64,000 nucleotides of DNA from Dehalococcoidia bacterium (lineage in GTDB: Bacteria > Chloroflexota > Dehalococcoidia > Lucifugimonadales > JAAXIE01): the NCBI GenBank assembly GCA_965248385.1, contig CBDFIZ010000002.1, forward strand, positions 949,904 through 1,013,903, written 5' to 3'. This document shows positions 9,385 through 64,000 of the stretch, in pieces (the stretch's first letter is position 1; each line of letters opens with the position of its first letter). Both the position numbers and the translations under genes were made by a program. The notes under the pieces were generated by a model that saw nothing but the letters and a program-made list of their open reading frames with translations, was not told the DNA's origin and made no database searches.

Positions 9385-9525
9385 CTAGGCCTTGCCTATG
9401 CGGAATACCTTAGTCCCACAGGTGGGGCAGGTGCCTTGGGTGGCTGGCCTGCCATTCTTCAATTGCACTTGAGTGGGACCGCTAATCTCACGTTTCGCCC
9501 TACACTTGAAGCAATAAGCTTCCAC
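9385..9525 (-). CDS. DUF5679-type zinc-ribbon mini-protein (46 aa), absent from the ORF track
   Basis: My translation: (V/M)EAYCFKCRAKREISGPTQVQLKNGRPATQGTCPTCGTKVFRIGKA. It has CxxC...CxxC, a GGGAGGA RBS 7 nt upstream of the GTG, and a TTGACA-N16-TAGACT promoter upstream. Confidence 0.75.
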   Translation of the reverse strand: MEAYCFKCRAKREISGPTQVQLKNGRPATQGTCPTCGTKVFRIGKA

Positions 9526-9556
9526 AGACAGTCCTCCCGCTAGAGGTTAGGCTCTA

Positions 9557-9584
9557 AGTCTACGTAGCTATGTAAAGTTGTCAA
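9557..9584 (-). promoter_or_regulatory. sigma70-like promoter of the DUF5679 gene
   Basis: Minus strand TTGACA (9579-9584), 16-nt spacer, TAGACT (9557-9562); the spacer contains ATAGCTACGTAG. Confidence 0.4.
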
Positions 9585-9637
9585 GGCGATGCAAGGGTCA
9601 AATTACCATAACTTCCAGTTGTGGTTCTGACTCGTAG

Positions 9638-10585
9638 CTAGGAACTGCTGCCTACAGGGCAATAGGGCGATACGGTGTCCAACTGGAACACCAAGGATGG
9701 TGTCCACAAGTTCTCAGGCTTGTTGTAGCGCAGCACTCCCAGGAAACGACCGTCGCTGGTATAAGCGCGGTACCGCTCCATGTATCCCGCGTAGGCAAGG
9801 GTTGGCCCCAAGTTAACGTCCCTGCCGTGGCGTATGAGCCTCTCCGCTGCTCGGGGGACTATGGTGCTCTTTGAGTCCAACAATGCGTAATCCACAGGCA
9901 GTAGGTGCTGCTCCCACCCCGATTCTTCCAGCTCCTCGAGGGCGATTCCCTCTTCTACCTTGAACTGGCCGGAGCGGGTGCGCACCAGTTCCGATAGGTA
10001 CCCGCCACAGCCGAGGCTCTGACCTAAGTCGTGGGCCAGCGACCGCATGTAAACACCTCGTCCGCACCCCACTTGTAGGCTGACGTTGGGAGGCGAGAAG
10101 TCCAGCAGTTCGATGCTGTGGACCTCCACGCGACGAGGCTCTCGTTCGACCTCCACCCCAGCGCGGGCCAGCTCGTACAGCCGCTTGCCGTGATGTTTCA
10201 GGGCGCTGTACATGGGGGGCGTCTGCATGATTACACCACAGAAAGGCTGCACGGCCTGCTCTACGTCGTCCCGAGTCACGCCTTGCCAATCTTGCGTCGC
10301 CAGCACCTCTCCCTCGGAGTCGTAGGTGGATGTGGTGGTGCCTAGGGTTACCTTCATGTAGTAGCCTTTGACGCCGTCAATCAGGTGCTCCATGAGCCGT
10401 GTAGCTTGGCCGAAGCAGATGGCGAGCACTCCTTCGGCCTGAGGGTCCAGGGTGCCGCCGTGGCCCACGCCCTTCTTCTGGTCCGTAAGCCGCTTCACCC
10501 GGCGTACTACGTCCATGGAGGTGCCGCCACGGGCCTTGTTGATGTTGATGAACCCGTTTATTCGTGTGGGGCGCGCGGCAGTCAT
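9638..10585 (-). CDS. truB: tRNA pseudouridine(55) synthase TruB
   Basis: GFININKARGGTSMDVV...GHGGTLDP catalytic Asp motif and a C-terminal PUA-like region. Start trimmed to the ATG at 10585; the longer ORF overlaps rbfA. Confidence 0.92.
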   Translation of the reverse strand: MTAARPTRINGFININKARGGTSMDVVRRVKRLTDQKKGVGHGGTLDPQAEGVLAICFGQATRLMEHLIDGVKGYYMKVTLGTTTSTYDSEGEVLATQDWQGVTRDDVEQAVQPFCGVIMQTPPMYSALKHHGKRLYELARAGVEVEREPRRVEVHSIELLDFSPPNVSLQVGCGRGVYMRSLAHDLGQSLGCGGYLSELVRTRSGQFKVEEGIALEELEESGWEQHLLPVDYALLDSKSTIVPRAAERLIRHGRDVNLGPTLAYAGYMERYRAYTSDGRFLGVLRYNKPENLWTPSLVFQLDTVSPYCPVGSSS

Positions 10586-17725: not shown

Positions 17726-19723
17726 ATGAGTGTAGCAGTCGTCGGTGTCGACGTAGGTGGTACTTTCACTGATTTTGCCGTCCTCAGGGATGGTCGTCTC
17801 GAGGTCTACAAGCTGCCTTCGACACCCAGCGACCCCTCGCGGGGCATCCTTCAGGGCGTGAGCGACCTTTCCGTCGGCGAGGCCTCTTATGTCCATGGTT
17901 CTACCGTCGCTACCAATGCCCTTCTTGAGAGGCGCGGAGCACGCACCGCCTTGGTGACCACGCACGGTTTCGAGGACGTGCTGGAGATCGGGCGGCAGAA
18001 TCGCCCCGACCTCTACGACTTGGGAATGGACCGTTCTCCGGCACTGGTGCCCGCGGAGCTACGCTTCGGCGTGTCCGAGAGGGTGGACCAAGCAGGAGCT
18101 GTGGTTGCTACGCCTCGCCCTGAGGAGTTGAGCAAGCTGGTGTCGACCTTGGACGACGCCCAAGTGGACGCCGTGGCCGTGGTGCTCCTCTTCTCATTTC
18201 TCAACCCTCTGCACGAAGAGTTGGTGGCGGAAGCGCTGGCTGGCTTAAAGTCCAACCCTTATGTCTCAGTGTCCAGCCAAGTGGTGCCTGAGTTTCGTGA
18301 ATACGAGCGCACCTCCACAGTGGTGGTCAACTCATACGTAGGCCCCCTGATGTCACGCTACATAAGCCAATTGGAGACCGCTCTTGGCGCTGGGCTGCGC
18401 ATCATGCAGTCCTCGGGAGGCAGCATCACCGTCCAGCTTGCCTCCAACCAGCCGGTGCGCACCATTCTCAGCGGTCCCGCTGGTGGCGTGGTGGGGGCCT
18501 TCCACTTAGCATCGCAAGCTGGCTACGACGACGTAATCACCTTGGACATGGGCGGGACGTCTACCGATGTCTCCCTGTGCCCCGGCGTCATCAAGGAGAC
18601 CACCTCCTCCAGCTTGGCGGGCTGCCCTATCAGCGTGCCCATGATTGAGATTCACAGCGTGGGGGCCGGAGGCGGCTCCATCTCTCGTCTGGACGAGGGA
18701 GGCGCCTTGGTGGTTGGCCCGCAGTCAGCAGGAGCCGACCCTGGGCCGGCATGCTACGGCGTTGGCGACCAAGTGACCGTCACAGACGCCAACCTCATCT
18801 TGGGGCGTCTGCCTCAAGACCAGCCCCTAGCGGGAAAGTTGCAATTGCACTATCAACGGGCCCACGACCTCTTATCAGCGTTGGGTGCGGGACTCGGTGG
18901 CGACGCTCGCGCCGCAGCCTTGGGCGTGGTGAGGGTGGTGAATGCCACCATGGAGCGCGCCATCCGCACCATCTCCTTGGAGCGGGGATACGACCCTCGC
19001 CGCTTCACGCTTGTGGCCTTTGGCGGGGCGGGTCCCGCCCATGCCTGTGAGTTGGCCCAGGAGTTGGGTATTCCGCGGGTGTTGGTGCCGCCCCATCCCG
19101 GCATACTATCCGCCTTGGGCGTGGGCATCGCCGACATCGTCCGCGATTATTCCCGAACCGTGATGATGCGCGGCTCTGACATGACCAAAGACCGTCTCGA
19201 TGCCGGATTCGCTGTTCTGGAAGATGCGGCCACGGCCGAGATGGCCGATGAGGGCCTGCCTGTGGGGCGACTGGTGATGCGCCGTTTCCTTGACGTGCGC
19301 TACGTGGGACAGTCCTACGAACTGACGGTCAACTACCCCACCCGCACCGCTGGGTTCGATCAAGCCGTAGCCCGCGCTTTTCACCGCGCTCACAACCAAC
19401 GGTTCGGCTACTCCGATCCCTCGGAGCCGGTGGAGGCAGTGAACCTGCGCCTCAAGATGCTGATTCCCGTAGACAAGCCGGAACAAGCCGTGGGCCAGCG
19501 CGAGGGAAGTGACTCCAGTGCAGCCCGGGTTGCGGAAACCGAGGTTGTCTTCCAGCAAGGGGCGTTGCCCACCAACCTGTATCAGCGCGACCAGCTACGC
19601 CACGGCAACGTCATACAGGGCCCGGCTGTGGTGTTGCAGATGGACTCCACCACCTCCATCCCTCCCGGCTGGACAGCCCAAGTGGACGGCTACGGGAACC
19701 TCATCGTCGAACCAACAGGATGA
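17726..19723 (+). CDS. hyuA: hydantoinase/oxoprolinase family protein, A subunit
   Basis: VGVDVGGTFTD N-terminus, DMGGTSTD, 665 aa. Confidence 0.93.
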   Translation: MSVAVVGVDVGGTFTDFAVLRDGRLEVYKLPSTPSDPSRGILQGVSDLSVGEASYVHGSTVATNALLERRGARTALVTTHGFEDVLEIGRQNRPDLYDLGMDRSPALVPAELRFGVSERVDQAGAVVATPRPEELSKLVSTLDDAQVDAVAVVLLFSFLNPLHEELVAEALAGLKSNPYVSVSSQVVPEFREYERTSTVVVNSYVGPLMSRYISQLETALGAGLRIMQSSGGSITVQLASNQPVRTILSGPAGGVVGAFHLASQAGYDDVITLDMGGTSTDVSLCPGVIKETTSSSLAGCPISVPMIEIHSVGAGGGSISRLDEGGALVVGPQSAGADPGPACYGVGDQVTVTDANLILGRLPQDQPLAGKLQLHYQRAHDLLSALGAGLGGDARAAALGVVRVVNATMERAIRTISLERGYDPRRFTLVAFGGAGPAHACELAQELGIPRVLVPPHPGILSALGVGIADIVRDYSRTVMMRGSDMTKDRLDAGFAVLEDAATAEMADEGLPVGRLVMRRFLDVRYVGQSYELTVNYPTRTAGFDQAVARAFHRAHNQRFGYSDPSEPVEAVNLRLKMLIPVDKPEQAVGQREGSDSSAARVAETEVVFQQGALPTNLYQRDQLRHGNVIQGPAVVLQMDSTTSIPPGWTAQVDGYGNLIVEPTG

Positions 19724-19742
19724 CCGCCTCCGACAGCCGCTC

Positions 19743-19893
19743 CGTCATTCTTGTGCAATAGCCGCCTGTACCCAGACATCGTCCACCCCTCGTCATTCCC
19801 ACGTAGGCCGGAACCCACGGCCCGCACCGCCTCGGCAAGCCGCTCTCCCGTAAACCGCCCCCGTCATTCCCGCGCAGGCGGGAACCCACGGCC
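19743..19893 (+). repeat. three REP-like palindromic repeats (CGTCATTCCC-N8-GGGAACCCACGGCC type)
   Basis: Copies at 19791-19822 and 19862-19893 are near-identical, with inverted repeat TTCCCGC/GCGGGAA. A degenerate copy lies at 19743-19766. Confidence 0.7.
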
Positions 19894-19949
19894 CACACCA
19901 ACTCTGCAGACCTTAACCACCGCCATACGAAACCCCTGACTGATGGCAC

Positions 19950-20545
19950 TGATACTCGCCCGTTGACAGCGGCCACCCCTCCCCGCTGACCTCAATGCAG
20001 GCAGGGGACTGACCCCTCAGGGGCGCCCCTGCCTTTCTTATTTCAGATCCCTCGAATCAGCGGAATGAGAATGAGCGCGAACGATGGAAATAATGGAATC
20101 TCCCTCCCTCTCTGGAAGGATCCCAGTCCGCTGAAATGCGGTGCAATGCGGCAAGCTGAATCAGGTAGGGCAACGGCAAATGCGGCGTACTACAGATACA
20201 AGAAATTCCCCTCAGCTACGGCCGTTGCCGCATCCCAACTACGCCAGCGACAACACCGGCATCGCACCTCAGCTACGACTCATCCCTTTTGGGCGAGGCA
20301 CTGCCACTGCTGGGAAGCACCGCGTGTCACAGTCTGACCGTATCTAACTAGCTACGAACATGTCACAAATGTCATAGGTCTCAGATAGAATAAACCTGAT
20401 TTTAGCTACGACCAGTGTGACATCCCCAGCTACGGAACGGTCCCAAACTGGAGTTTTGGGCATGCATCATATCCTCACCTCTTCTTGCGCCGCCAGCGGC
20501 AGGCCTACGCAACGGCAGTAGCATCTCCCGCCTTGTGCTACCATT
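19950..20545 (+). ncRNA. structured noncoding locus A of the YYY-AGCTACG family (candidate novel RNA or leader)
   Basis: Promoter box TGATA-N8-TTGACA; 5' hairpin 20000-20033; AGCTACG at 20214, 20271, 20350, 20404 and 20428; two CAGATA-N15-AGCTACG cores with complementary flanks; no frame-conserved ORF. Confidence 0.5.
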
Positions 20546-20606
20546 GGCCACGCAGAACAGAGACGCCAGCACTGACTAACCCCGCCCAAAATCCCGGAGG
20601 TGCTCC

Positions 20607-22202
20607 TTGGTAGACCCCATAAGCTTGGAAGTGTTCAAGAACCTGTTCGTATCCGTCTCCGAGGAGATGGGGGTTGCCCTGCAGCGCACGGCCTACTCCC
20701 CCAACATGAAGGAGCGGCTGGACTTCTCTTGCGCTATATTCGACCCCGACGGTGCCATGGTGGCCCAAGCGGCCCACATCCCGGTGCACTTGGGCGCAAT
20801 GCCTTTCTCCGTGGCCGCCGCCATAAATCATGTCAGCCCGCTCGGGCAGGGCGACATCGTCATCCTGAACGACCCCTACTTGGGCGGCACTCATCTGCCT
20901 GACATCACCATGGTCGGACCAGTCTTCATCGGCAGTGGTGCCAACCGACAGTTAGCGGGCTTCGTCTCCAACCGGGGCCATCATGCTGACGTTGGAGGTA
21001 TGACCCCCGGCTCGCTCCCACTTTCCACTGAGCTATACCAGGAAGGCACCATCATCCCTCCCCTGAAGCTAGCCCGCCGGGGCAGGCTGAACGCTGAAGT
21101 GGTGCAACTCATCTGCCGGAACTCCCGTACCCCTGATGAGCGCAAGGGCGACTTGGCAGCCCAAGTGGCCTCCATACGCGTGGGAGAGCGCAGGTTGGCC
21201 GAAATTGCCGAACGGTACGGCATGGAGACCACGCGGGAGCACATGGACGCCATCCTTGATTACTCCGAGAGGCGCACCCGCGCGGCCATCAGCCGAATAC
21301 CCGATGGCAGTTACCACTTCCTCGACTACATGGACGACGACGGCCAAGTGGAGCAACTGGTCCCCATCGCGGTGACCATCACCGTTGACGGCGACCATCT
21401 CACCGCAGACTTTGAGGGCACTTCGCCCCAGCGTCCCGGCTGCATCAACGCTCCTTACGCTGTCACCACCTCCGCGGTGCTGTACTCCGTGCGCTGCATC
21501 ACCGGCGGTGATGTTCCCCCTAATCAAGGTTGTCTGCGTCCTGTCACCATCATCACGCCCGAAGGCTCGCTGGTGAATCCCCAGCCACAGCGGGGAGTGG
21601 CTGGGGGCAACGTTGAGACCTCCCAGCGCATTACCGACGTGCTGCTTGGAGCGTTGGCGCAAGCCCTGCCCGACGTTATACCCGCCGCCAGCCAAGGCAC
21701 GATGAACAACCTGCTCATCGGCGGACATGACCCGGTGCGCGGCAAGGCGTTTGTTTACTACGAGACCATCGCGGGAGGCATGGGCGCCCGCCCTGACAAA
21801 GACGGCGTGTCGGGCATCCACACGCACATGACCAACACCATGAACACTCCCGTCGAGGCCTTGGAGTTCGCCTTCCCGCTGCGCCTGCAGGAGTACTCTA
21901 TCCGGCGAGGCACCGGCGGGGCTGGCCTGCACCGTGGCGGCGACGGTGTACAGCGAGACGTAGAGTTCCTAAGCCCGGCCCGCGTCACTATCCTCTCGGA
22001 GCGCCGTAAGCGCGCCCCGTATGGTCTGCAAGGGGGCCATCCCGGCCACCACGGCGAGAACGTGCTACTGCGCAGCGGCTACGAAGAGGTGCGCCTCTCT
22101 GGCAAGGAGACCCTCGACGTGCTGGCAGGCGACGTCCTCAGCATACGCACCCCCGGCGGTGGCGGCTGGGGCGCACCGACGGACGAGTCCCCCGCCGACT
22201 AA
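20607..22202 (+). CDS. hyuB: hydantoinase B/oxoprolinase family protein
   Basis: TTG start with a GGAGG RBS; [11 protein letters not shown]-terminus; 531 aa. Confidence 0.93.
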
Positions 22203-30096: not shown

Positions 30097-30352
30097 TTGC
30101 TTGCGCTGGCGGAGTTAACTAGACGTCCGATCAACCGTCAGGACAGGGCTACTCCCCCAATCGCGAACGGCTACGCGGTGGAGTTGGGCCGCCAGAAGAC
30201 AATGGCGACGCTGGCGGTGAAGCCGGGGAGAATGGGCGAGCCTAGGGTGTGGAGGCCGTAGTTGGCGACCTCGTTCAAAGCGTCATCGTTGTGGGCCAGT
30301 ACCCGAACCACCCCCACGGGGAGCGTGCTTCTCCCCCTGAAGCCAATCCCTC

Positions 30353-31095
30353 TGACATCAGCCCGTTGACACGGCTGTCCTTCCCCACCTAGGCTCGACA
30401 TATGGCTCCAAAAACGCAATCAGCGAAAACACCCGTAGCAGGGCCGCCAGCAACGGGTGTCGGAAAACCCCTTGCCAATACCCCTTGTAACAACACGCCA
30501 CCGGGCAGACCCACGTGTAGCGGCCACGCCAACCTGCTACCTGCGTGGCCTCTCAATGGTACGTGTGTGTCCCATAAAAGCCCGTTATTTCGTAGCTGGA
30601 TTTACCCAAATGAGACAAATGAGACACATTACAGATACGGAGAATGCGTTTTTAGCTACGACCAGTGTCTCATCTGTACCCTTTCCAGATACGATTCTGG
30701 CCATGTCACTGAGACCAAAACGGTACACCATGTCTCACCCCATACACAGCCTTCCATACCCATGTCGGGCCAAGCGGACCGGATACAACGACGTCACAAA
30801 TGCACAGGCATCAGCTACGAAAACGTGAATTCGTGTGTCAACCCCTTGACTAAAGCAAAGCTGACGCATCGCTGCGCCGGTCCAAATCCCGGTACAATAA
30901 AATGCATACAATTTATGACGGATATAGCATTGGAAGTTAACGAGAGATGCAAAAGACTAGCATTGGAACACCACAAACACCACAAAATGCGAACGTCCAA
31001 GGCCAGTAATGCCGGTTGTCATGCCAAGACCTCCGGCAAAGCAGCAACGGACTCGTGAGAGGGCTAGAGCCTGCCCCGGACCCGGTCCGGGGGGT
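30353..31095 (+). ncRNA. structured noncoding locus B of the YYY-AGCTACG family
   Basis: Promoter box TGACA-N8-TTGACA-N18-TAGGCT; TCGTAGCT (30590) pairs with AGCTACGA (30654); ATGAGACA x2 (30610, 30619) with complements at 30666 and 30731; lower-GC 3' half with further tandem word duplications. Confidence 0.5.
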
Positions 31096-31340
31096 GACGG
31101 TGATTCACGGCGCTTTAACCATGCCACATACAACATTCGAAAGACCCTGGCCATTGCCCGCACTCTGTGGCCATCGGGGTCCACGACCCAGTACTCTTGA
31201 ATGTTGTGCCGGGGTATAGGTTCAGCTTGATTCGCCGGTCACGACTGGCCGTAGACGGCGACACCACCACACCGGTTTGCGCGTCCCAAGCTGCTGTTGT
31301 ACATTGAATCGTCAAATCATCACGCTGGTGGCGCAGGGAT

Positions 31341-40697: not shown

Positions 40698-40731
40698 CCG
40701 GTTGCTCCATCCAATCGTTCCCGCCCTTCCA

Positions 40732-41230
40732 TGACACCGGCCCGTTGACAGCTACGCCCTATCCGCTCTAGTGTTGATGCAGGCAGGGGATCGACCTTCA
40801 AGGTCGCCCCCCTGCCCTTTCCATTCGGCCCCATTTCGAAAGGAACGCAGTGCGCGACGGGAACGCGAACAAGCTGGCAAAGCTGACTCACATACGACAG
40901 CGCGAGAAATGCGAGACGCTGCAGATACAAAAAAGTTCGTTCCAGCTACGACCGGTCTCGTCTCTCAGCTACAAACCGCAATGTTCTCGCCAAGCCACGC
41001 CGCCACGGGAGCCTCATGGACGCACCGTGCCAAAGCTGTCTCAGTTGAAGAGACCGCAGGAATTGCAGTGCATTCAGCTTCAAACAATTGCGCTGCAGAC
41101 ACGAATGGACTGCAATTCTCCAACGATCTTGAGCCGCTACCCGTAAGTCTGGGCGGGAGCCGCGGGAGCCCTCGGCGTATACACGGCCTTATTGACTGGA
41201 AGTAGCCAAAAGTTGTACCTTGATAGCTGG
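40732..41230 (+). ncRNA. structured noncoding locus C of the YYY-AGCTACG family
   Basis: Promoter box TGACA-N8-TTGACA-N18-TAGTGT; 5' hairpin 40782-40816; nested stems GCGAGAA/TTCTCGC and CGAGAC/GTCTCG around CAGATAC-N15-AGCTACGACC; long-range stem 41059-41068/41110-41118. Confidence 0.5.
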
Positions 41231-41272
41231 CCCCGAACGCTCGGGGCCACCGTGATTGAGGGGGCATCAAGC

Positions 41273-41345
41273 GCCCCAGTGGCGCAATGGCAGCGCAGCC
41301 GATTTGTAATCGGCAGGTTGGTGGGTTCGAATCCCCCCTGGGGCT
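41273..41345 (+). tRNA. tRNA-Thr (anticodon TGT)
   Basis: Hand fold: acceptor GCCCCAG/CTGGGGC, D stem GCGC/GCGC, anticodon stem GCCGA/TCGGC, loop TTTGTAA, T loop TTCGAAT. One mismatch in the T stem and a 6-nt variable loop. Confidence 0.75.
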
Positions 41346-41428
41346 CTCCCCAGTGCAGGAAAGCATCTGCTCCCCCGCCCTAGCCATATTGCGCCTGAAG
41401 CGCAGTATGGCTAAACTGGTGCCTATAG

Positions 41429-41517
41429 GGGAGGGGTGGGTGAGTGGTTAAAGCCACCAGACTGTAAATCTGGCGCCCTTGCGGGCTTCGTAGGTTCGAA
41501 TCCTACCCCCTCCACCA
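41429..41517 (+). tRNA. tRNA-Tyr (anticodon GTA), class II long variable arm, CCA encoded
   Basis: Acceptor GGAGGGG/CCCCTCC, anticodon stem CCAGA/TCTGG, loop CTGTAAA, T arm GTAGG-TTCGAAT-CCTAC, terminal ACCA. Confidence 0.9.
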
Positions 41518-41546
41518 AAAACAATTATTTCAGGTTCCAAGGTAGT

Positions 41547-41621
41547 GCCCACATAGCTCAGAGGTAGAGCACGTTCTTGGTAAGAACGGGGTCGGCGGTT
41601 CGACTCCGCCTGTGGGCTCCA
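41547..41621 (+). tRNA. tRNA-Thr (anticodon GGT), CCA encoded
   Basis: Acceptor GCCCACA/TGTGGGC, D arm GCTC-AGAGGTA-GAGC, anticodon stem CGTTC/GAACG, loop TTGGTAA, T arm GGCGG-TTCGACT-CCGCC. Confidence 0.92.
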
Positions 41622-41647
41622 GAGAGATTTTCAGGAGGATTTCGTAG

Positions 41648-42850
<1,203 letters not shown>

Positions 42851-42852
42851 CC

Positions 42853-43023
42853 ATGGCAAGAAAGAGTACAGAAGCCAGGATCATCGTTACTCTCGCCTGC
42901 ACCACCTGTAGGGAGCGCAACTACACCAGCGAGAAGAACAGGCGCAACGACCCCCAGAGGGTTGAGTTGAGGAAGTACTGTTCGCGCTGTCGCAATCACA
43001 CCTCTCACAGGGAAATGCGGTAA
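42853..43023 (+). CDS. rpmG: 50S ribosomal protein L33 (absent from the ORF track)
   Basis: My translation: [56 protein letters not shown]. Canonical tuf-rpmG-secE order. Confidence 0.9.
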
Positions 43024-43027
43024 CACT

Positions 43028-43261
43028 TTGGCCCGGGTGACGTCACAAGGGTTGATCCGCCGCGGTGGAATTGGTCGCGGAGGTGCACTCCGCTTCTTCG
43101 GCGAGGCCTTCGGCGAACTACGCAAGTGCGTATGGCCGACTCGCGAAGAGGTGGTGCGCCTCACCGGCATCGTCATCGTCATTGCAGGCATCATTGGGTT
43201 TGCGTTGGGCGTTCTGGACTTCACATTCACGCAGACGCTCACTCGGTTCCTATTCTCCTGA
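43028..43261 (+). CDS. secE: preprotein translocase subunit SecE
   Basis: TTG start; ...ELRKCVWPTREEVV... followed by a single TM helix. Confidence 0.88.
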   Translation: MARVTSQGLIRRGGIGRGGALRFFGEAFGELRKCVWPTREEVVRLTGIVIVIAGIIGFALGVLDFTFTQTLTRFLFS

Positions 43262-43301
43262 CGGGCCAGGTCCGGTTACGATACAGGTCGGAAAGGGCAT
43301 T

Positions 43302-43880
43302 ATGGCCACTAGATCCGATACAACAGATTTGGGCGAGGGCGCCGTACGGTGGTACGTCCTGCATGCCTACTCAGGCCAGGAAGACCGCGTAAAGAAGAAC
43401 CTGGATCAGCGTATCCAGAGCATGGATATGCAGCACAAAATATTCCAGGTGATTGTCCCGTCCGAGGAAGAGGTTGTACTCAAGGACGGCAAGCGTCGGC
43501 CCGAGAGCCGTAAGGTGTTCCCCGGCTACGTGTTGGTCCAGATGAGTATGGAAGACGAGAGTTGGCGCGTAGTGCGTGAGACGCCAGGGGTTACTGGGTT
43601 CGTGTCTGCCCAAGAACCGGGCGACCCGCGCCCGAGGCCACTGCCTCTCCCTGATGCCGAGGTGGAGGGTATCCTTAGCCAGATAGCGACGGGAGCACCC
43701 AAGGTGAATGTGGGTCTGGAGCGTGGGGAGTCGGTGCGAATTGTCGCCGGTCCCTTCTCCGACTTCATGGGCACCATCAACAATGTGGACCCCAACAAGG
43801 GTAAGGTACGGGTGCTGGTCTCCTTCTTCGGCAGGGAGACTCCCGTGGAACTGGACTTTCTTCAGGTGGAAAAGGTGTAA
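43302..43880 (+). CDS. nusG: transcription termination/antitermination protein NusG
   Basis: WYVLHAYSGQEDRVKKNL NGN domain; KOW motif GESVRIVAGPF. Start trimmed to the ATG at 43302. Confidence 0.95.
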   Translation: MATRSDTTDLGEGAVRWYVLHAYSGQEDRVKKNLDQRIQSMDMQHKIFQVIVPSEEEVVLKDGKRRPESRKVFPGYVLVQMSMEDESWRVVRETPGVTGFVSAQEPGDPRPRPLPLPDAEVEGILSQIATGAPKVNVGLERGESVRIVAGPFSDFMGTINNVDPNKGKVRVLVSFFGRETPVELDFLQVEKV

Positions 43881-44309
43881 ATGGCCAAGAAAGTACGGGC
43901 TATCGTCAAGCTGCAACTACAAGCGGGCAAGGCCACTCCGGCCCCGCCGGTGGGCCCCGCCTTGGGCCAGCATGGCGTCAACATAATGGCCTTCGTCAAG
44001 GAATACAACGAGAAAACAGCGAGCCAGTCTGGCACAGTGGTGCCCGTGCACATAACCGTCTTCGAAGACCGCTCGTTCACATTCGCGACCCGCACGCCTC
44101 CCGCTGCCGAGCTGCTGCGTCAAGCAGCTGGCGTGGAGAAGGGTGGCGACCGTCCCGGCTTTGCCCCGGCGGGCGCCGTCCCTCGCTCTGCCTTGCGAAC
44201 TATTGCAGAGTTGAAGCTGCGGGACTTGAATGCATCCTCGGTCGACGGGGCCATGAAAATCATCGAAGGCACTGCCCGTAGCATGGGCATTGAGATAGCA
44301 GAGGAATAG
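43881..44309 (+). CDS. rplK: 50S ribosomal protein L11
   Basis: [27 protein letters not shown]. Confidence 0.97.
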
Positions 44310-44312
44310 ACC

Positions 44313-45026
44313 ATGCCCAAACACAGCAAGCGCTACAATCAGTTGGCCGAACGCGTCGACCCGGACCGGGAATACACGCCGCAGGAGGCCCTCGACCTCC
44401 TTACCGAGGGCAACACCAAGTTCGATCAGACAGTGGAGTTGCACCTCAAGACGGGGGCCGACGTGCGCCATGCCGACCAGCAGGTGCGGTCGGTCACGGT
44501 TCTGCCTCACGGGTTGGGCAAACCCCAGCGTGTCCTCGTCTTCGCCGGGGGCGACGCTGCCGAGGCAGCGCGCCAAGCTGGCGCCGATTACGTTGGTGAT
44601 GACGACCTGATCAAGAAAGTCGAAGACGGTTGGGTGGAGTTTGACGTCGGGCTTGCCGTGCCCGACATCATGAGTAAGATCGGGCGCTTGGGCCGGGTCT
44701 TGGGCCGACGCGGTCTGATGCCCAACCCACGCACCGGCACCATGGTGCAGCCGAGAGACTTGGGCCGGGTCATCGAAGAGGCGAAGAAGGGACGGCTTGA
44801 ATTCCGCACCGACCGCACGGCCATCATCCACTGCCCCTTGGGGAAGGTGAGCTTCTCCCGCGAGCAACTTTTGGAGAACCTGTCATCTCTGGTGGACTCG
44901 GTGCAGAGGGCGCGGCCCGACGGTATCAAGGGGTCTTTTCTGCGCAGCGCCTACCTCACCACCACCATGGGCCCCGGAGTAAGACTTGACTTGGGAGAGC
45001 TTCTCGCGCTAAAAGAAGGTCTGTAA
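44313..45026 (+). CDS. rplA: 50S ribosomal protein L1
   Basis: KFDQTVELHLKTG..., MPNPRTGT. Confidence 0.97.
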   Translation: MPKHSKRYNQLAERVDPDREYTPQEALDLLTEGNTKFDQTVELHLKTGADVRHADQQVRSVTVLPHGLGKPQRVLVFAGGDAAEAARQAGADYVGDDDLIKKVEDGWVEFDVGLAVPDIMSKIGRLGRVLGRRGLMPNPRTGTMVQPRDLGRVIEEAKKGRLEFRTDRTAIIHCPLGKVSFSREQLLENLSSLVDSVQRARPDGIKGSFLRSAYLTTTMGPGVRLDLGELLALKEGL

Positions 45027-45029
45027 AAG

Positions 45030-45200
45030 AAAGGTACGCTGAAGACAGCGGGTCCCCCGCCCAAGCCGGCTCCCCATCAACGGGAGCGAAGCCAGAAAGA
45101 GCGGGGGTTAAGCCGACGGGCCCGCCGAGGCACTGAGGACTCCCTTCGGGCATATTGCGCCGGACGTGATCCCTGGGCCGCGGCTCAGGGATTTTTTTGA
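45030..45200 (+). promoter_or_regulatory. rplJ (L10) leader region with terminator-like hairpin
   Basis: 220-nt structured gap before rplJ. Hairpin ATCCCTG...CAGGGAT (45169-45192) is followed by TTTTTTT. The position matches the known L10-leader autoregulatory site. Confidence 0.5.
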
Positions 45201-45247
45201 TAGCTCGAACGTACTGGCCTTAGGGATTCGCTGAAAGGAGAAATCAC

Positions 45248-45808
45248 TTGCCCACAGAGAAACGCATAACGCAAACGCGAGAGATTCAGGAGAAACTGGG
45301 TCGCTGTACCATCGCCGTGGCGACCGATCCCACGGGTCTCAGCGTCAACGTGCTTAATGACCTGCGTCGCAGGCTACGAGAGCGTGGGGTGGAGTACCGC
45401 ATGGTCAAGAACAGCCTGACTTATCTCGCTGCCGATGGCGCTCAAATGTCCCACCTCAAGGACTCGGTGCAGGGGCCTACGGCCTTGGCCTTCGGCTACG
45501 ACGACCCGGTGCAAACCGCGGCCGCCCTCGACGAGTACGTCCGCACCACCCGAGTCCAACTGCCCATACGGGGAGGCATATTGGGTCGGCGCGCCCTGAG
45601 CTCGGCCGATGTCTCCACGTTGGCGACCCTGCCCTCCCGCGAGGTGCTGGCGGGCCAAGTGCTGGGTCAACTCCAAGCTCCCGTAGCCAACCTGATGTCC
45701 CAACTGGAGGCCCCCATTCAAGGCCTCCTAGGTGTCCTCAACGGTCCCATTGCCAACCTGGCAAGCCTGCTTCAGCAACGTGGCCAACAGTTGGAATCAA
45801 ACTGGTAA
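45248..45808 (+). CDS. rplJ: 50S ribosomal protein L10
   Basis: TTG start with an AAAGGAG RBS; L10 family sequence; followed by rplL. Confidence 0.93.
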   Translation: MPTEKRITQTREIQEKLGRCTIAVATDPTGLSVNVLNDLRRRLRERGVEYRMVKNSLTYLAADGAQMSHLKDSVQGPTALAFGYDDPVQTAAALDEYVRTTRVQLPIRGGILGRRALSSADVSTLATLPSREVLAGQVLGQLQAPVANLMSQLEAPIQGLLGVLNGPIANLASLLQQRGQQLESNW

Positions 45809-54108: not shown

Positions 54109-54267
54109 GTTGTGTCCGTGCTGCTCCCTATCGTGAGCGCCGAATGTTACCGGTTGGGAGCTTGAGCCGTCAACGGGCTGGTGTCAGTGTCGGTCGGCCA
54201 AAAATGTAGGGGCAACCGCAATGGTCACCCCTACATAAAGTTTTCGGGAGCTTCGGGTCGAGAAGAG

Positions 54268-55293
54268 TTACAGGTTGGCCTGCGGGTCGGAGTAGCTCTC
54301 CTCCTTGATGTATATCTGGAGGCGGCCTCGCTGGGTGTCAGCCACGACGATGCGCCGATTGGCTCGGTCGTAGCCGATGGCCGTGGGCATGTTGAATCGC
54401 CATTCCTGTTCTAGGCTCTTCACACGACGACGCGCCTTCACGTAGTCGGGGTTGGCGTCCACTGCCATCTGCGCCCACTTGGAGAGCTGCTGCGCGTCTC
54501 CAACGAGAGACGTCAGGAAGACGCCTGCCGAATCATATACCTGCACCCGGTTGTTGCCCCAGTCGGTGACATAGACCTCGCCGTCGTCGTCCACTGCCAC
54601 GTCGGTGGGGTGGTTCATCTCACCCGCGCCCTCGCCATGGCCGTATCCGAAGGTGGCTAAGTAGGCGCCGTCGGGGCTGAACTTCTGTACCCGGTGGTTC
54701 TTCCAGTCGGCCACGTAGACGTTGTTGTCTAGGTCGGTGGTGATGCCCCAAGGACGGTTGAGGTTGCCGGGGCCGCTGCCGAAAGACCCAAACTTGCCTA
54801 GGAAGCGACCATCGCTGGAGAACTTCTGTACGCGGTGGTTCTCGGTGTCCACCACGTAGAGGTTGTCACGGGAGTCGAAGGTCATCCCGGAAGGCCGGTT
54901 CAACTCACCGTCGCCGGTGCCCGGCGTGCCGAACTTTGACAAGTAGTTTCCTTGGTTGTCGAAGACGCTGATACGGTTCAGCCACTCGTCGGAGACGTAA
55001 ACATTCCCCGCGCTGTCGACGGCCACGCCTGTGGGCCAAGTGGTCTGGCCGTCCCCATCTCCCCTCCAGCCGAACTCGGCCAGAATCTCTTCGCCACCCG
55101 GCTCAGGGATGCTGACCTTAGTGGTGTGGGGAGTGTTGTTGTTCTCGTTAGCCCGATTGACCACGTAGGCCACTCGGTCGGGGCCGAGAGCCAAGCCAAT
55201 AGGATTTGTGAAGCCATTGCCCGAAGCCGCGTTGCGGCCCACGGTGTGGCTGTAGTTGATGGTCCGTCCTGCAACGGTAGTCGTAAGAGCCAT
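54268..55293 (-). CDS. NHL repeat beta-propeller protein
   Basis: Six repeats of ...P.G...D..GN.YV.D..N.R.Q.F...G. Confidence 0.85.
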   Translation of the reverse strand: MALTTTVAGRTINYSHTVGRNAASGNGFTNPIGLALGPDRVAYVVNRANENNNTPHTTKVSIPEPGGEEILAEFGWRGDGDGQTTWPTGVAVDSAGNVYVSDEWLNRISVFDNQGNYLSKFGTPGTGDGELNRPSGMTFDSRDNLYVVDTENHRVQKFSSDGRFLGKFGSFGSGPGNLNRPWGITTDLDNNVYVADWKNHRVQKFSPDGAYLATFGYGHGEGAGEMNHPTDVAVDDDGEVYVTDWGNNRVQVYDSAGVFLTSLVGDAQQLSKWAQMAVDANPDYVKARRRVKSLEQEWRFNMPTAIGYDRANRRIVVADTQRGRLQIYIKEESYSDPQANL

Positions 55294-58799: not shown

Positions 58800-59329
58800 A
58801 ACTCGTCACTGTCACAGACTGGCCTCATTTAGATGGCTGTCTCCAGACCTGCCCGTGGATTGAGGGACGCATTTGCACGCAGGTGTGCACGCATGGTGGC
58901 GCCCCGTAGCTGAGGTGAGGCGATGGGCGTGCATGCTGCCTAGCTGGGGTTGCACGGCGTTTGTAGCTGCGGCGAATTTTTTCGTAGCTAATCCCCCTGC
59001 AATCCCTGCAATTGGGTCCTTTGGTGCAGCTAGCGACCAGCTACGACTTTGGATGTGCATCGGCACTGCATGGTGGGGACGGGCGTGGCAGCGGCGGATG
59101 TTGGATTCTCGTGGCGATGCCGTAGCTGCGGTGGGCTGAGGAGGGGCCTGCACCGATTGTTGTCCTTCAGATGGTTGCAGTTTTTGCACGAGGCGTCCTT
59201 CTCAAGTCGAGTTATGGCCGAAGTTGAATCGTAGGGCCAAATGGAAAGCCGGTGCCACCTCGATGGGTTCGTCCCCGGCCTATGGTCATACTAGCCGAAT
59301 GAGTGTTGGGAGACAATGGCCGATTGTCA
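58800..59329 (-). ncRNA. structured noncoding locus D of the YYY-AGCTACG family (minus strand, upstream of sodN)
   Basis: Minus-strand promoter box TGACA-N8-TTGTCT-N17-TAGTAT (59288-59329). Six AGCTAC(G/A)/AGCTAGG copies. Adjacent tandem ATTGCAGGG x2 (58995-59012). TGCGTGCA x2 with a complement flanking AGCTACG (58874-58934). Confidence 0.5.
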
Positions 59330-62630: not shown

Positions 62631-62838
62631 GTTGACCGCATTGCAGCAACATCAAAATCTAGTCTCTGGACTTGTCGATGCTATTGCACAACCCTTCGCA
62701 GCATACTACAAACGGGTTTCTGGTGCGTCACGGTACGTACGACGACCCGATATCGGACGGGGGCGGCTTTACCGTCATTTGGGCCTGGAGCCGGAATCAA
62801 GTGGGTCCCGGCCTCCGGGGACCGTTCCCCAACACCTA

Positions 62839-63357
62839 TGACATTAGCCCGTTGACGGGGACTGCTGTTCCCCTCTAGCCTTCGTACAGACCCGTCCCGT
62901 TCACGACTGGTCCCTCTCTTGGTAGACCACTTCTTGAGGTGCCAAAACATGCGGACCCCTCGCAAGGACAGTCCCGTGGCTGTTCACTACGCACGCGTAC
63001 ACACTCGCCGCTCCAGTGGTCCAGCCCGATGCCATAAAATGTGGCATAGAAATCCCTTAATTTCGTAGTTGAATTGATTACGAATGCTACAGATGCTACA
63101 TAACGCAGATACGGTAAAACGCATTTTAGCTACGAGGCGTCTGGCATGTGAACAAGCCACAGCTACGATTCGTAGCAACCATGGGATAGATGAGACCGAA
63201 ACCAGATAAAAAACTCGCGTCAGCTACAACTACTGTCCCATCCGAAGCTGCAAGGACGGTCGTGATGCAAGGATCTCCCTCCGGAGGGATAACGGTCGGC
63301 TGTCCCCCAGAAGATCCCCTTGATATACTTTCTTGTAGCTACAGCGAGGCACAGCGT
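62839..63357 (+). ncRNA. structured noncoding locus E of the YYY-AGCTACG family (upstream of gatB)
   Basis: Promoter box TGACA-N8-TTGACG-N18-TAGCCT. TCGTAGTT (63063) pairs with AGCTACGA (63128). ATGCTACA x2 (63084, 63093). CAGATAC-N15-AGCTACG. GCTACGA-TT-CGTAGC hairpin (63162-63176). The last AGCTACA lies 8 nt before the gatB SD. Confidence 0.5.
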
Positions 63358-64000
63358 GTGGAATACGAAACCGTTATAGGGCTAGAGGTGCATGTCCAGC
63401 TGCTTACCGAGAGCAAGATGTTTTGCTCTTGCAGCACTCGGTATCAGGGCGCGCCTCCCAATACGCATGTCTGTCCTGTGTGCTTGGGGATGCCTGGGGT
63501 GCTGCCGGTTATCAACAGGCAGGCTGTGGAGCACACGATTGCTACTGGCTTGGCCTTGGACTGCCGCATCGCTGAGACTACACGGTTCGACCGCAAGAAC
63601 TACCCCTATCCAGACCTCATGAAGGGCTACCAGATCTCCCAGTACCAAGACCCAATCGCCTATGACGGGTACTTGGACTTGGAGATTGGTGACCACCGGA
63701 GGCGCATCAGCGTGGAGCGGGTGCACTTGGAAGAGGATGTGGCCAAGCTGCAGCACGTAACCGGGTATGGGGCCGAGCCTTACACGTTGGTGGATGTGAA
63801 TCGGTCCGGCGTACCTCTGATGGAAGTGGTGAGCCGTCCCGACATGCGCTCGGCGGAAGAGGCCCGCCTCTACCTCACCAGCCTCCACGCCATCCTGCAA
63901 TACACAGGTGTCTCCACCGCCAATATGCAGGAGGGCAACTTCCGCTGCGATACCAACGTTAGCCTTCGCCCCAGGGGCAGTGACCAATTGGGGGGCAAGG
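63358..64000 (+). CDS. gatB: Asp-tRNA(Asn)/Glu-tRNA(Gln) amidotransferase subunit B (5' part, runs off the window)
   Basis: GTG start; my translation is [51 protein letters not shown].... It is not in the ORF track because no stop is reached. Confidence 0.9.

Follow-up and report, generated by a model that had tools for sequence, protein, structure and literature searches.

What separates hyuA from hyuB by 883 bp in a member of the Dehalococcoidia, when the two genes were said in an initial annotation usually to abut? The question is raised by a 64-kb stretch of DNA (the window; contig CBDFIZ010000002.1 of assembly GCA_965248385.1), in which that annotation placed the stop of hyuA at 19723 and the start of hyuB at 20607 and read the spacer, here locus A, as a non-coding insertion holding repeat units A1 and A3. 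These borders match, Pfam supports both genes (Table 1), and the insertion is borne out by a syntenic relative with the gene order Rrf2-hyuA-hyuB-pheA-trk (L026; HyuB 81%; L numbers denote sequences from other genomes), whose hyuA-hyuB gap is 85 nt and contains no unit. The annotation dealt with this single locus; the larger point is that it belongs to a dispersed family whose members are exchanged between strains. It is well supported that the spacer carries selected hairpin modules on a dispersed, promoter-bearing and exchangeable cassette.

Covarying hairpin units in the hyuA-hyuB spacer

All of the short words originally listed are present in locus A, at the positions given apart from one. 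The complementarity of GGCAACGGC and GCCGTTGCC holds, the former spanning 20169-20177 (it does not start at 20170) and its partner 20221-20229. AGCTACG occurs five times (20214, 20271, 20350, 20404 and 20428), the tandem pairs GAATGA (20063 and 20069) and ATGGAA (20084 and 20093) were both found, and the 3' arm of unit A1, TTGCCGCAT, is a perfect complement of ATGCGGCAA at 20146-20154. This pattern of words and boxes is not due to chance, because AGCTACG was counted 23 times in the window against 5.8 expected (0 of 100 shuffles reached 23) and CAGATA-N10-30-AGCTAC 7 times against 0.08. Units account for six of the latter matches, and the remaining one (54292-54318, minus strand) is inside a gene.

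A unit consensus was derived from an alignment of 16, then 25, units. The parts follow one another as box0 (CAGAUACGAC), word 1 (AUGnnnACA), word 2 (AAUGnnnACAC), box1 (CAGAUAC), an A/U-rich loop, box2 (CAGCUACGACC), a word complement that forms the 3' arm (GUGUnnnCAU), and box3 (CCCAGCUACG). A short helix is in this way framed by four copies of CAG(A/C)UACGAC, with the A/U-rich loop, a stretch of ~15 nt that is first purine-rich and then U-rich, between the two inner boxes. Full cassettes comprise one to three such hairpin modules, the 3' arm of 8-9 nt being able to pair with either of the tandem identical 5' arms. Across the units the stems are variable and the 45-nt loops conserved.

The claim that A1 and A3 are repeat units with complementary arms was upheld, since RNAalifold recovered the helix unguided. 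Given the alignment alone as input, it paired word 2 and the 3' arm (90% of positions paired), compensatory changes affecting 6 of the 9 pairs. For word 1 and the 3' arm, 96% of positions paired among 16 units, with 7 of 8 pairs compensatory, and 91% among 23 distinct units, with compensatory change at 8/8 pairs; none of 500 shuffles was as good, and registers slid by 1-3 columns paired at 18-51%. A compensatory helix above both shuffled and slid controls places the units among structured hairpins in the generic sense. Because both words covary with the 3' arm, complementarity to it is maintained in two identical 5' arms in tandem, and this three-way covariation implies two interchangeable registers, an arrangement with no Rfam counterpart. 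In the minimum free energy fold of unit A3, it is word 1 that is paired with the 3' arm.

Individual loci show the same behaviour. The initial annotation had reasoned that relatives holding the same spacer without the complementary pairs would speak against the units; the opposite is seen, compensatory changes having preserved the pairing in relatives. In the window, the hyu locus carries ATGTCACA and ATGTCATA with TGTGACAT, and L023, in flanks that are otherwise alignable, has ATTTCACA twice with TATGAAAT. Among the copies of a second cassette type (B, described below), the fourth pair is A-U in most copies, G·U in L006 and G-C in L011.

Family members and their turnover between strains

Units were found at four loci of the window (A, B, C and D) and, in degenerate form, at a fifth (E; Table 1), where a weak match to covariance model R1 was obtained (58941-59003, E 0.3-0.9). 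A full cassette starts with a 5' box, 230-270 nt before the first unit at the plus-strand loci (~180 nt at A), and the box first noted at 19950-19992 proves to be the conserved 5' end of every full cassette. Its consensus is YTGACAY-N3-GCCCG-TTGACR, exactly 18 nt, then TAnnnT, and identical geometry was found at 30366/30390, 40745/40769 and 62852/62876 as well as in L002, L010, L011, L022 and L023. The promoter-like core of TTGACR, exactly 18 nt and TAnnnT extends over 9 divergent cassettes, the copy at locus A reading TGACCT. A sigma-70 consensus scan does not call the box, the second hexamer matching at 3/6 positions, and to judge from its hexamer the promoter at locus A may be weakened. At L022 2526-2531, in a sister strain, TAACCT stands in place of the window's TGACCT, and all other cassettes have TAnnnT.

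The cassettes fall into sub-types. In the AC sub-type (A, C, L002a, L022 and L023) a very stable stem-loop follows directly after the box, with a U-rich tail next. Its predicted energy is -25.3 kcal/mol at locus A (z -2.4) and -27.3 kcal/mol at locus C (z -3.3); the inner stem differs between A and C yet stays paired, and the structure is present in L002, L022 and L023. It begins within a few nucleotides of the presumed transcription start, and a terminator scan placed a terminator-like site at 20018-20036 within it; the U-tract is weak at locus C. The B-type is a repeat of ~800 nt with three word/complement hairpins and a terminal repeat, R. Unit 1 is its best conserved part, with 26 of 130 positions variable versus ~33% in the 3' part.

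Outside the window, a strict 21-base pattern was scanned over 185,579 species genomes (species representatives), which gave 9 loci in OZ253586.1, a 3.7-Mb Dehalococcoidia metagenome-assembled genome (MAG), and two further matches attributable to chance. JGI metagenomes returned chance matches only, viral contigs none, and a blastn search of plasmids and phages no match. Further relatives were reached through a search for HyuB homologues, and the resulting contigs included three close relatives with units (L022/L027, L023 and L024). R1 gave 25 matches with E<1e-3 in 179 kb, all of them intergenic, and none in the 81%-identity relatives L025 and L026. For Dehalococcoidia or Chloroflexi, literature searches uncovered no element of this kind. 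The cassette family appears to be confined to one Dehalococcoidia lineage and is apparently undescribed.

OZ253586.1 holds five full and two partial B-type copies that are 82-89% identical. Window B is 82-83% identical to the five full copies, which are 84-89% identical among themselves. In L001, the copy is flanked by a purL-like gene and dnaB, with an unannotated open reading frame (ORF) of 163 aa also within this interval, and in L010 the copy precedes the citrate synthase gene; in both cases all are on the same strand. Repeat R (~90 nt; CTAGAGCCTGCCCCGGACCCGGTCCGGGG..GTGATTCACGGCGCTTTAACCATGCC..CAACAATCGAAAGACCCTG) terminates every B copy, and it is also found directly 5' of the promoter box in four OZ253586.1 loci (L001, L003, L006 and L007); R may function as a terminator or attachment site, or may be a repetitive extragenic palindrome (REP) in its own right. 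The 89% relative has a second cassette-like locus (L024 6150-6588) with a canonical TTGACA-N17-TACAAT promoter and two units, which combine the B-type word ATGAGACA with the box0-first order of the AC-type; the second of them is cut off by the contig end.

The junction of hyuA and hyuB is a hot spot for insertion in general. One gene, encoding a PIG-L protein, lies in the gap of L025 (HyuB 81%; L025 2626-3474); L024 (HyuB 89%) has a gap of 286 nt with unit A3 only and no promoter box; and the sister strain L022 (HyuB 100%) has 666 nt with a cassette containing A1 and A3, as in the 883 nt of the window. The longest gap, 2472 nt, belongs to L023 (HyuB 90%) and holds a box, a 5' hairpin, an A3-type unit and two extra minus-strand genes. 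These genes (within L023 1529-4000) encode a protein of 98 aa and a leucine-rich, lipoprotein-like protein of 428 aa that has no Pfam match. The neighbourhood is kept at least partly among these relatives, with the Rrf2 gene upstream wherever a contig extends that far; pheA/trk are found downstream only in L022, L025 and L026, and a Rieske oxygenase is there in L023 and L024.

Strains with 97-99% identity in the flanking genes differ by gain, loss or exchange of cassettes. At the hyu locus, L022 and the window share this level of identity in the flanks, versus 55-75% in the cassette. Window A1 is 77% identical to L005 of OZ253586.1 versus 67% to its positional counterpart in the sister strain, and A3 is 57% identical between window and sister strain. 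The segment of hairpin A0 is present in L023 and absent in L022. In the his operon, the gap between hisA and the methyltransferase gene measures 338 nt in the sister strain versus 1244 nt in the window, the whole B cassette being missing, with ~900-930 bp replaced by ~23 bp. The ends of this ~900-bp indel show no terminal inverted repeats, and comparison of the junctions with the empty sister site revealed an ambiguous short similarity, GTTGTG(G/C)C, and nothing else. A MITE (miniature inverted-repeat transposable element) or Correia-type element was rejected on these grounds, there being neither terminal inverted repeats nor a clean target duplication at the B junctions. No transposase, reverse transcriptase or integrase is encoded among the ~50 genes of the window, and no mobility or partner gene adjoins five copies in OZ253586.1. 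Exchange by recombination among family members would fit this sequence comparison best. The indel itself places window ~30280-31213 opposite L027 19718-19740 in the order hisH-hisA-[B]-methyltransferase-hisF, with flanks 87-97% identical, and the inserted block is ~50 nt longer on each side than the B consensus common with OZ253586.1.

Table 1 Coordinates of the hyuA-hyuB spacer, its parts and the other family members in the window
Feature	Position	Strand	Basis and details
hyuA (hydantoinase/oxoprolinase A), upstream flank	17726..19723	+	ORF; Pfam PF05378/PF01968/PF19278 (Hydant_A_N, Hydantoinase_A, Hydant_A_C)
hyuA-hyuB spacer with cassette, 883 bp	19724..20606	+	
Two REP-like hairpin copies, 5' of cassette, outside unit family	19787..19908	+	Cores 19792-19817 and 19863-19888, TTCCCGCGCAGGCGGGAA
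Cassette 5' box at locus A, promoter-like	19949..19992	+	CTGATAC-N-GCCCG-TTGACA (19963-19968), 18-nt spacer, TGACCT (19987-19992)
GC-rich 5' stem-loop and U-rich tail, AC-type	19999..20046	+	Stem-loop 19999-20034
Hairpin A0	20057..20134	+	Stem TCAGCGGA/TCCGCTGA around GAATGA x2 and ATGGAA x2; inverted repeat I3
Unit A1	20136..20249	+	R1 78.6 bits, E 3e-15; repeats I7, I8; ATGCGG 20136, 20146, 20180; box1 CAGATAC 20193-20199; box2 CAGCTACGGCC 20213-20223; 3' arm TTGCCGCAT 20225-20233; box3 AACTACG 20237-20243
Solitary box ('A2' position)	20270..20279	+	CAGCTACGAC; weak partial R1 match 20261-20281
Unit A3	20325..20439	+	R1 77.7 bits, E 4e-15; positional counterparts in L022, L023, L024; word-like TGTCACA 20325-20331; box0 AGCTACG 20350-20356; word 1 ATGTCACA 20360-20367; word 2 ATGTCATA 20369-20376; box1 CAGATAG 20382-20388; box2 AGCTACGACC 20404-20413; 3' arm TGTGACAT 20416-20423; box3 AGCTACG 20428-20434
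hyuB-proximal region	20531..20606	+	Includes GGAGGTG before TTG start; kept in all relatives
hyuB, downstream flank	20607..22202	+	TTG start; Pfam PF02538 (Hydantoinase_B), E 4e-220
Member B, ~800 nt, between hisA and methyltransferase/hisF	30349..31154	+	Units 30578-30689, 30756-30885
Repeat R closing member B	31056-31154	+	
Member C (AC-type), upstream of tRNA-Thr/Tyr/Thr and EF-Tu	40722..41272	+	Unit 40865-40979
Member E, degenerate, leader of Ni-superoxide dismutase (sodN)	58900..59130	-	Tandem TTGCAGGG words, AGCTACG boxes, GTGCAA arm
Member D, fills hemC/gatB divergent intergenic region	62829..63381	+	Units 63051-63163, 63167-63257

Proposed mode of action and competing explanations

The cassettes are co-oriented with the downstream gene and are located in operon spacers or in the sole possible 5' leader of a gene. 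All 6 strong units of the window are on the plus strand with plus-strand genes downstream, and E is on the minus strand with sodN. D fills the divergent hemC/gatB region and E the divergent sodN/sodX region, each being the only leader available to gatB and sodN, respectively. Plus-strand RNA is favoured, because the box is on that strand, the units are co-oriented with the next gene, D and E lie in sole leaders, and the OZ253586.1 copies with identified neighbours (L001 and L010) share the orientation of those genes. Orientation, position in leaders or spacers, and compensatory change at a fixed locus even without a box make action in cis the best available reading.

We assign a probability of roughly 50% to a cassette that recombines, carries a promoter and affects plus-strand leader RNA in cis through its hairpin modules. 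The cassette would be transcribed on the plus strand, and its modules would fold at the RNA level and work in cis. A factor, either a protein or an RNase, would read the single-stranded boxes displayed around the register-shifting helix and would set the processing, stability or read-through of the leader, so that hyuB would be expressed from a cassette-supplied, separately controlled leader and not by simple coupling to hyuA. The cassettes, which appear to encode no enzyme of their own, would spread and be exchanged by recombination among copies. That the four boxes around a two-register helix serve as a platform for a protein or RNase deciding the fate of the leader is our own proposal, and a tentative one. 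Rather doubtful is the broader notion of a new class of cis-acting 'register-shifting' hairpin, read by a dedicated factor that would govern processing, stability or read-through for many unrelated operons, and delivered to new genes, in an uncultured Dehalococcoidia lineage, on a promoter-carrying cassette that recombines between strains. If the modules do act on RNA, they would constitute a portable 'promoter plus structured leader' that rewires housekeeping operons (hyu, his, tRNA-tuf, gatB and sodN), and its exchange between near-identical strains would, if true, be a route of regulatory evolution not described for Chloroflexota.

A number of observations weigh against cis action in leader RNA. 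A G-U pair in A3 had been taken to make sense only at the RNA level, a claim that did not survive the comparison of units: G·U oppositions number 14 and A·C oppositions 16 in the 23 distinct units, and because of these counts wobbles are neutral, pointing neither to a strand nor to RNA. A hairpin in single-stranded DNA would covary in the same way, and the helix may form in RNA or in DNA. Folding energies of single units are modestly better than those of shuffles (z 0 to -2.2). Folding of the whole leader, as initially proposed, was run on 610 nt and did beat shuffles, but failed to discriminate between strands, the plus strand scoring z -2.35 and the minus strand z -2.98. Additional structures were tried and rejected. 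A long-range pseudoknot between CGUAGCU and AGCUACG is 76% paired with no covariation and is unproven, the AGCT core being palindromic, and an A/U mini-hairpin between box1 and box2 is 46% paired in fixed register, again with no covariation. A global fold of the 760-nt B-type RNA predicts 193 pairs, 4 of them compensatory, and the B-type global consensus fold has a positive covariation term; for these two reasons there is no support for a large defined B-type architecture.

The signals around the box and the genomic setting add to these difficulties. The -10 hexamer of locus A (TGACCT, 19987-19992) has G at the critical position 2, and the 5' hairpin with its U-tract resembles a terminator just after the start, which is a poor fit with driving hyuB. 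B-type cassettes, closed by a hairpin repeat, give the impression of self-contained elements. No function is common to the downstream genes (hyuB, hisF, tRNA/tuf, gatB, sodN, dnaB and gltA), and presence/absence between strains means that a given copy is dispensable.

A rival explanation, which we consider unlikely, is selfish, non-autonomous mobile DNA. Its hairpins and GTAGCT/AGCTAC boxes would be recognised as single-stranded or cruciform DNA by a recombinase or transposase encoded elsewhere, by analogy with REP/REPIN-RAYT systems, IS200/IS605 ends or attC sites, and the promoter would make insertion within operons tolerable. Presence/absence and cassette swapping between strains of 97-99% identity agree with it, as do insertions within the hyu and his operons, insertion sites that differ between the window genome and OZ253586.1, and OZ253586.1 copies that resemble each other more closely than they resemble the window copy. 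The wobble counts do not speak for RNA, and GTTGTG(G/C)C at both B junctions is a possible short duplication. However, terminal inverted repeats and a clean target duplication are missing, and no mobility gene was found in the 64 kb or beside five copies in OZ253586.1. Variable arms with conserved loops are the reverse of what an arm-reading enzyme needs, a unit that occupies one fixed locus with conserved flanks in the window, L023 and L024 has changed in a compensatory manner, which points to selection acting after insertion, and strict co-orientation with genes requires an extra assumption. Even as selfish DNA the cassettes would be a new repeat family, one that explains long 'empty' intergenic regions and spurious ORFs in these MAGs. 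They mark recombination hot spots and are useful for strain typing.

In a different explanation, each cassette is its own transcription unit (~750 nt for the B-type) producing a trans-acting non-coding RNA, a protein sponge or a scaffold that works elsewhere, the repeated CAG(A/C)UACGA boxes or intermolecular contacts between words and complements being possible means. The B-type does span from promoter box to the hairpin repeat R at its end, and the genes downstream start a further 130-630 nt away; there are several paralogues per genome with unit 1 as the best-conserved segment, each RNA would carry many boxes, and a second molecule could offer its 3' arm as a partner for the spare 5' arm. 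We regard trans action as quite unlikely, given that unit A3 of L024 has no promoter box and sits 85 nt upstream of hyuB inside the operon spacer. D and E also lack a terminator-like end before gatB and sodN, repeat R has no U-tract, and copies are dispensable between strains.

Very unlikely, in our estimate, are arrays of binding sites in duplex DNA, with ATGnnACA/TGTnnCAT as one 9-bp site in two orientations and CAG(A/C)TAC motifs ~21 bp apart bound by a regulator or nucleoid-associated protein, the covariation then arising from local site duplication. Three short sites that change in parallel at a fixed locus (L023 versus the window) and the series A-U, G·U and G-C would hardly arise unless pairing were selected, repeats of 9 bp fall short of what gene conversion requires, and the conserved part of a protein site would not change from ATG to ATT. 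Such arrays would account for the 20-21 bp between the starts of box 1 and box 2, about two helical turns across an A-tract/T-tract, for AGCTACG between -35 and -10 at locus C (40750) and at 9563 (minus strand), and for wobbles without strand bias, but strict strand co-orientation with genes is unexpected of symmetric arrays.

Small protein or leader-peptide genes, suggested by tandem in-frame ATG words with a 9-nt period and by boxes reading A-D-T and A-T-T, are contradicted here and almost certainly not the answer, for although the ATG frame is open across unit 1 in six B copies and similar MRx..ADTK..ATT can be read at B, C, D1 and L005, substitutions in the six B-type copies fall evenly on codon positions (80/74/76) with many 1-nt indels and stops in every frame, box1-box2 spacing is 20 and not 21 in A1, L007 and L009, stops follow after 2-5 codons in A3 and D2, ATG has become ATT in both L023 words with a compensating change in the 3' arm, and no Shine-Dalgarno sequence is visible. 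The cassettes show no conserved frame, 3-periodicity or retained start. A 218-aa ORF with an ATG start (30402-31058, plus strand) lies wholly within the B cassette; it is not conserved in other copies and is almost certainly a spurious gene call.

Known systems and neighbouring features

With Rfam 15 (4227 models), the whole window at gathering score gave 3 tRNAs and no other match, and a relaxed search of loci A and B at E up to 10 gave chance matches only, at 15-20 bits versus thresholds of 34-94. ARAGORN, used for tRNA-likeness, reported the 3 real tRNAs alone. A riboswitch or other metabolite-sensing leader was rejected, the downstream genes being unrelated and the family found in one lineage, as was a CRISPR or tandem array, the boxes being irregularly spaced (26-80 nt) with no repeat-spacer periodicity. 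The sole match to a CRISPR direct repeat is a 14-nt chance match in the REP-like hairpin. Integron attC sites were likewise dismissed, with consensus arms of AAUGnnnACA/UGUnnnCAU and no cassette ORFs or integrase in the window.

By behaviour, the nearest analogues would seem to be pneumococcal BOX, Correia elements and 'mobile promoters'; by design, the unit appears to resemble none of them, the cassettes having no terminal inverted repeats, variable stems with conserved loops, and a duplicated 5' arm. BOX elements have the structure boxA-boxB(n)-boxC, measure 100-300 bp, are co-transcribed with their neighbours and are predicted to form stable RNA hairpins. Like the cassettes, those of Streptococcus pneumoniae are dispersed, non-coding, modular, variable in module number, intergenic and lineage-restricted, with no enzyme of their own. 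They differ in having no promoter of their own as a defining part, no duplicated 5' arm and modules conserved in sequence, and they share no sequence similarity with the cassettes. Correia elements of Neisseria, and other MITEs, are intergenic repeats that bring promoters and RNA-processing hairpins and are present or absent between strains. Correia elements are ~100-155 bp long with 26-bp terminal inverted repeats and a TA target duplication, whereas the cassettes measure 0.3-0.9 kb and showed neither terminal inverted repeats nor a clean duplication.

Among hairpin-forming DNA repeats, REP/REPIN-RAYT systems are comparable in being short, intergenic, multi-copy hairpin palindromes that persist as genome populations, and the complement of the cassette box contains GTAG, the tetranucleotide conserved at REP 5' ends. 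REPs are GC-rich palindromes of 20-40 nt with stems conserved within a family. The units, in contrast, have conserved loops and variable stems, and no Y1 transposase or RAYT is encoded among the ~50 genes of the window; the same spacer does hold a true REP-like pair (19787-19908), of a sequence different from that of the units. With attC sites the units share structure over sequence, covarying imperfect inverted repeats, co-orientation, and gain and loss of cassettes. The attC signatures R''/R' are RYYYAAC / GTTRRRY; these signatures, an integrase, an array and ORF cassettes are absent here, and the loops are long and sequence-conserved. Cis-acting leader RNAs (put, EAR, RAT/BglG-type, TRAP and PyrR) resemble the cassettes in lying between promoter and gene and in combining single-stranded motifs with alternative helices. 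TRAP sites are tandem repeats of a short motif, and all of these elements belong to defined regulons, but they have no sequence or architecture in common with the cassettes, whose downstream genes are unrelated and whose copies are dispensable between strains.

Part of the account of mobile promoters, or promoter reuse in prokaryotes, describes highly similar promoter regions before unrelated genes within a genome (PMC3575422). The cassette box similarly precedes hyuB, methyltransferase/hisF, tRNA-tuf, gatB and radC. Unlike a mobile promoter, it is the first part of a longer cassette of hairpin modules, and L024 has a unit without a box. The Chloroflexi-1 RNA motif (RF01698) is a candidate structured RNA of a narrow Chloroflexi lineage (Weinberg et al. 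2010, PMC2864571); it has no match in the window at the gathering threshold, and none in loci A and B at E up to 10. In kind, the sequence features would place the cassettes among interspersed, hairpin-forming and presumably transcribed intergenic repeats.

Two further parts of the hyuA-hyuB spacer stand outside the unit family. The REP-like element TTCCCGCGCAGGCGGGAA occupies the hyuA-proximal part; its copies (19787-19837 and 19858-19908) form direct repeat D1, are 84% identical and have no further copies in the window, and sister strain L022 has a single copy. The hyuB-proximal region is 100% identical to that of the sister strain, and its core GTGCTACCATTG.CCACGC is invariant in four relatives.

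Solitary boxes were also observed away from the units. A full box, CACTGACACCAGCCCGTTGACG-N18-TAACAT, is located ~45 nt upstream of radC (54140-54191, minus strand) with no unit behind it; either the cassette is solitary or truncated here, or the box serves more generally as a strong promoter. Two AGCTACG boxes occur at 9385-9660 on the minus strand, one directly after the truB stop and the second within a promoter-like site at 9563, between a -35 TTGACA and a TAGAGC-type -10. Downstream of this site is an ORF of 46 aa that has two CxxC pairs (MEAYCFKCRAKREISGPTQVQLKNGRPATQGTCPTCGTKVFRIGKA) and resembles a small zinc-ribbon protein. Downstream of cassette C, the region 41273-45808 is a high-expression cluster of tRNA-Thr/Tyr/Thr, EF-Tu, NusG and L10, and the 530-nt non-coding stretch before its tRNA operon is unusual in itself.

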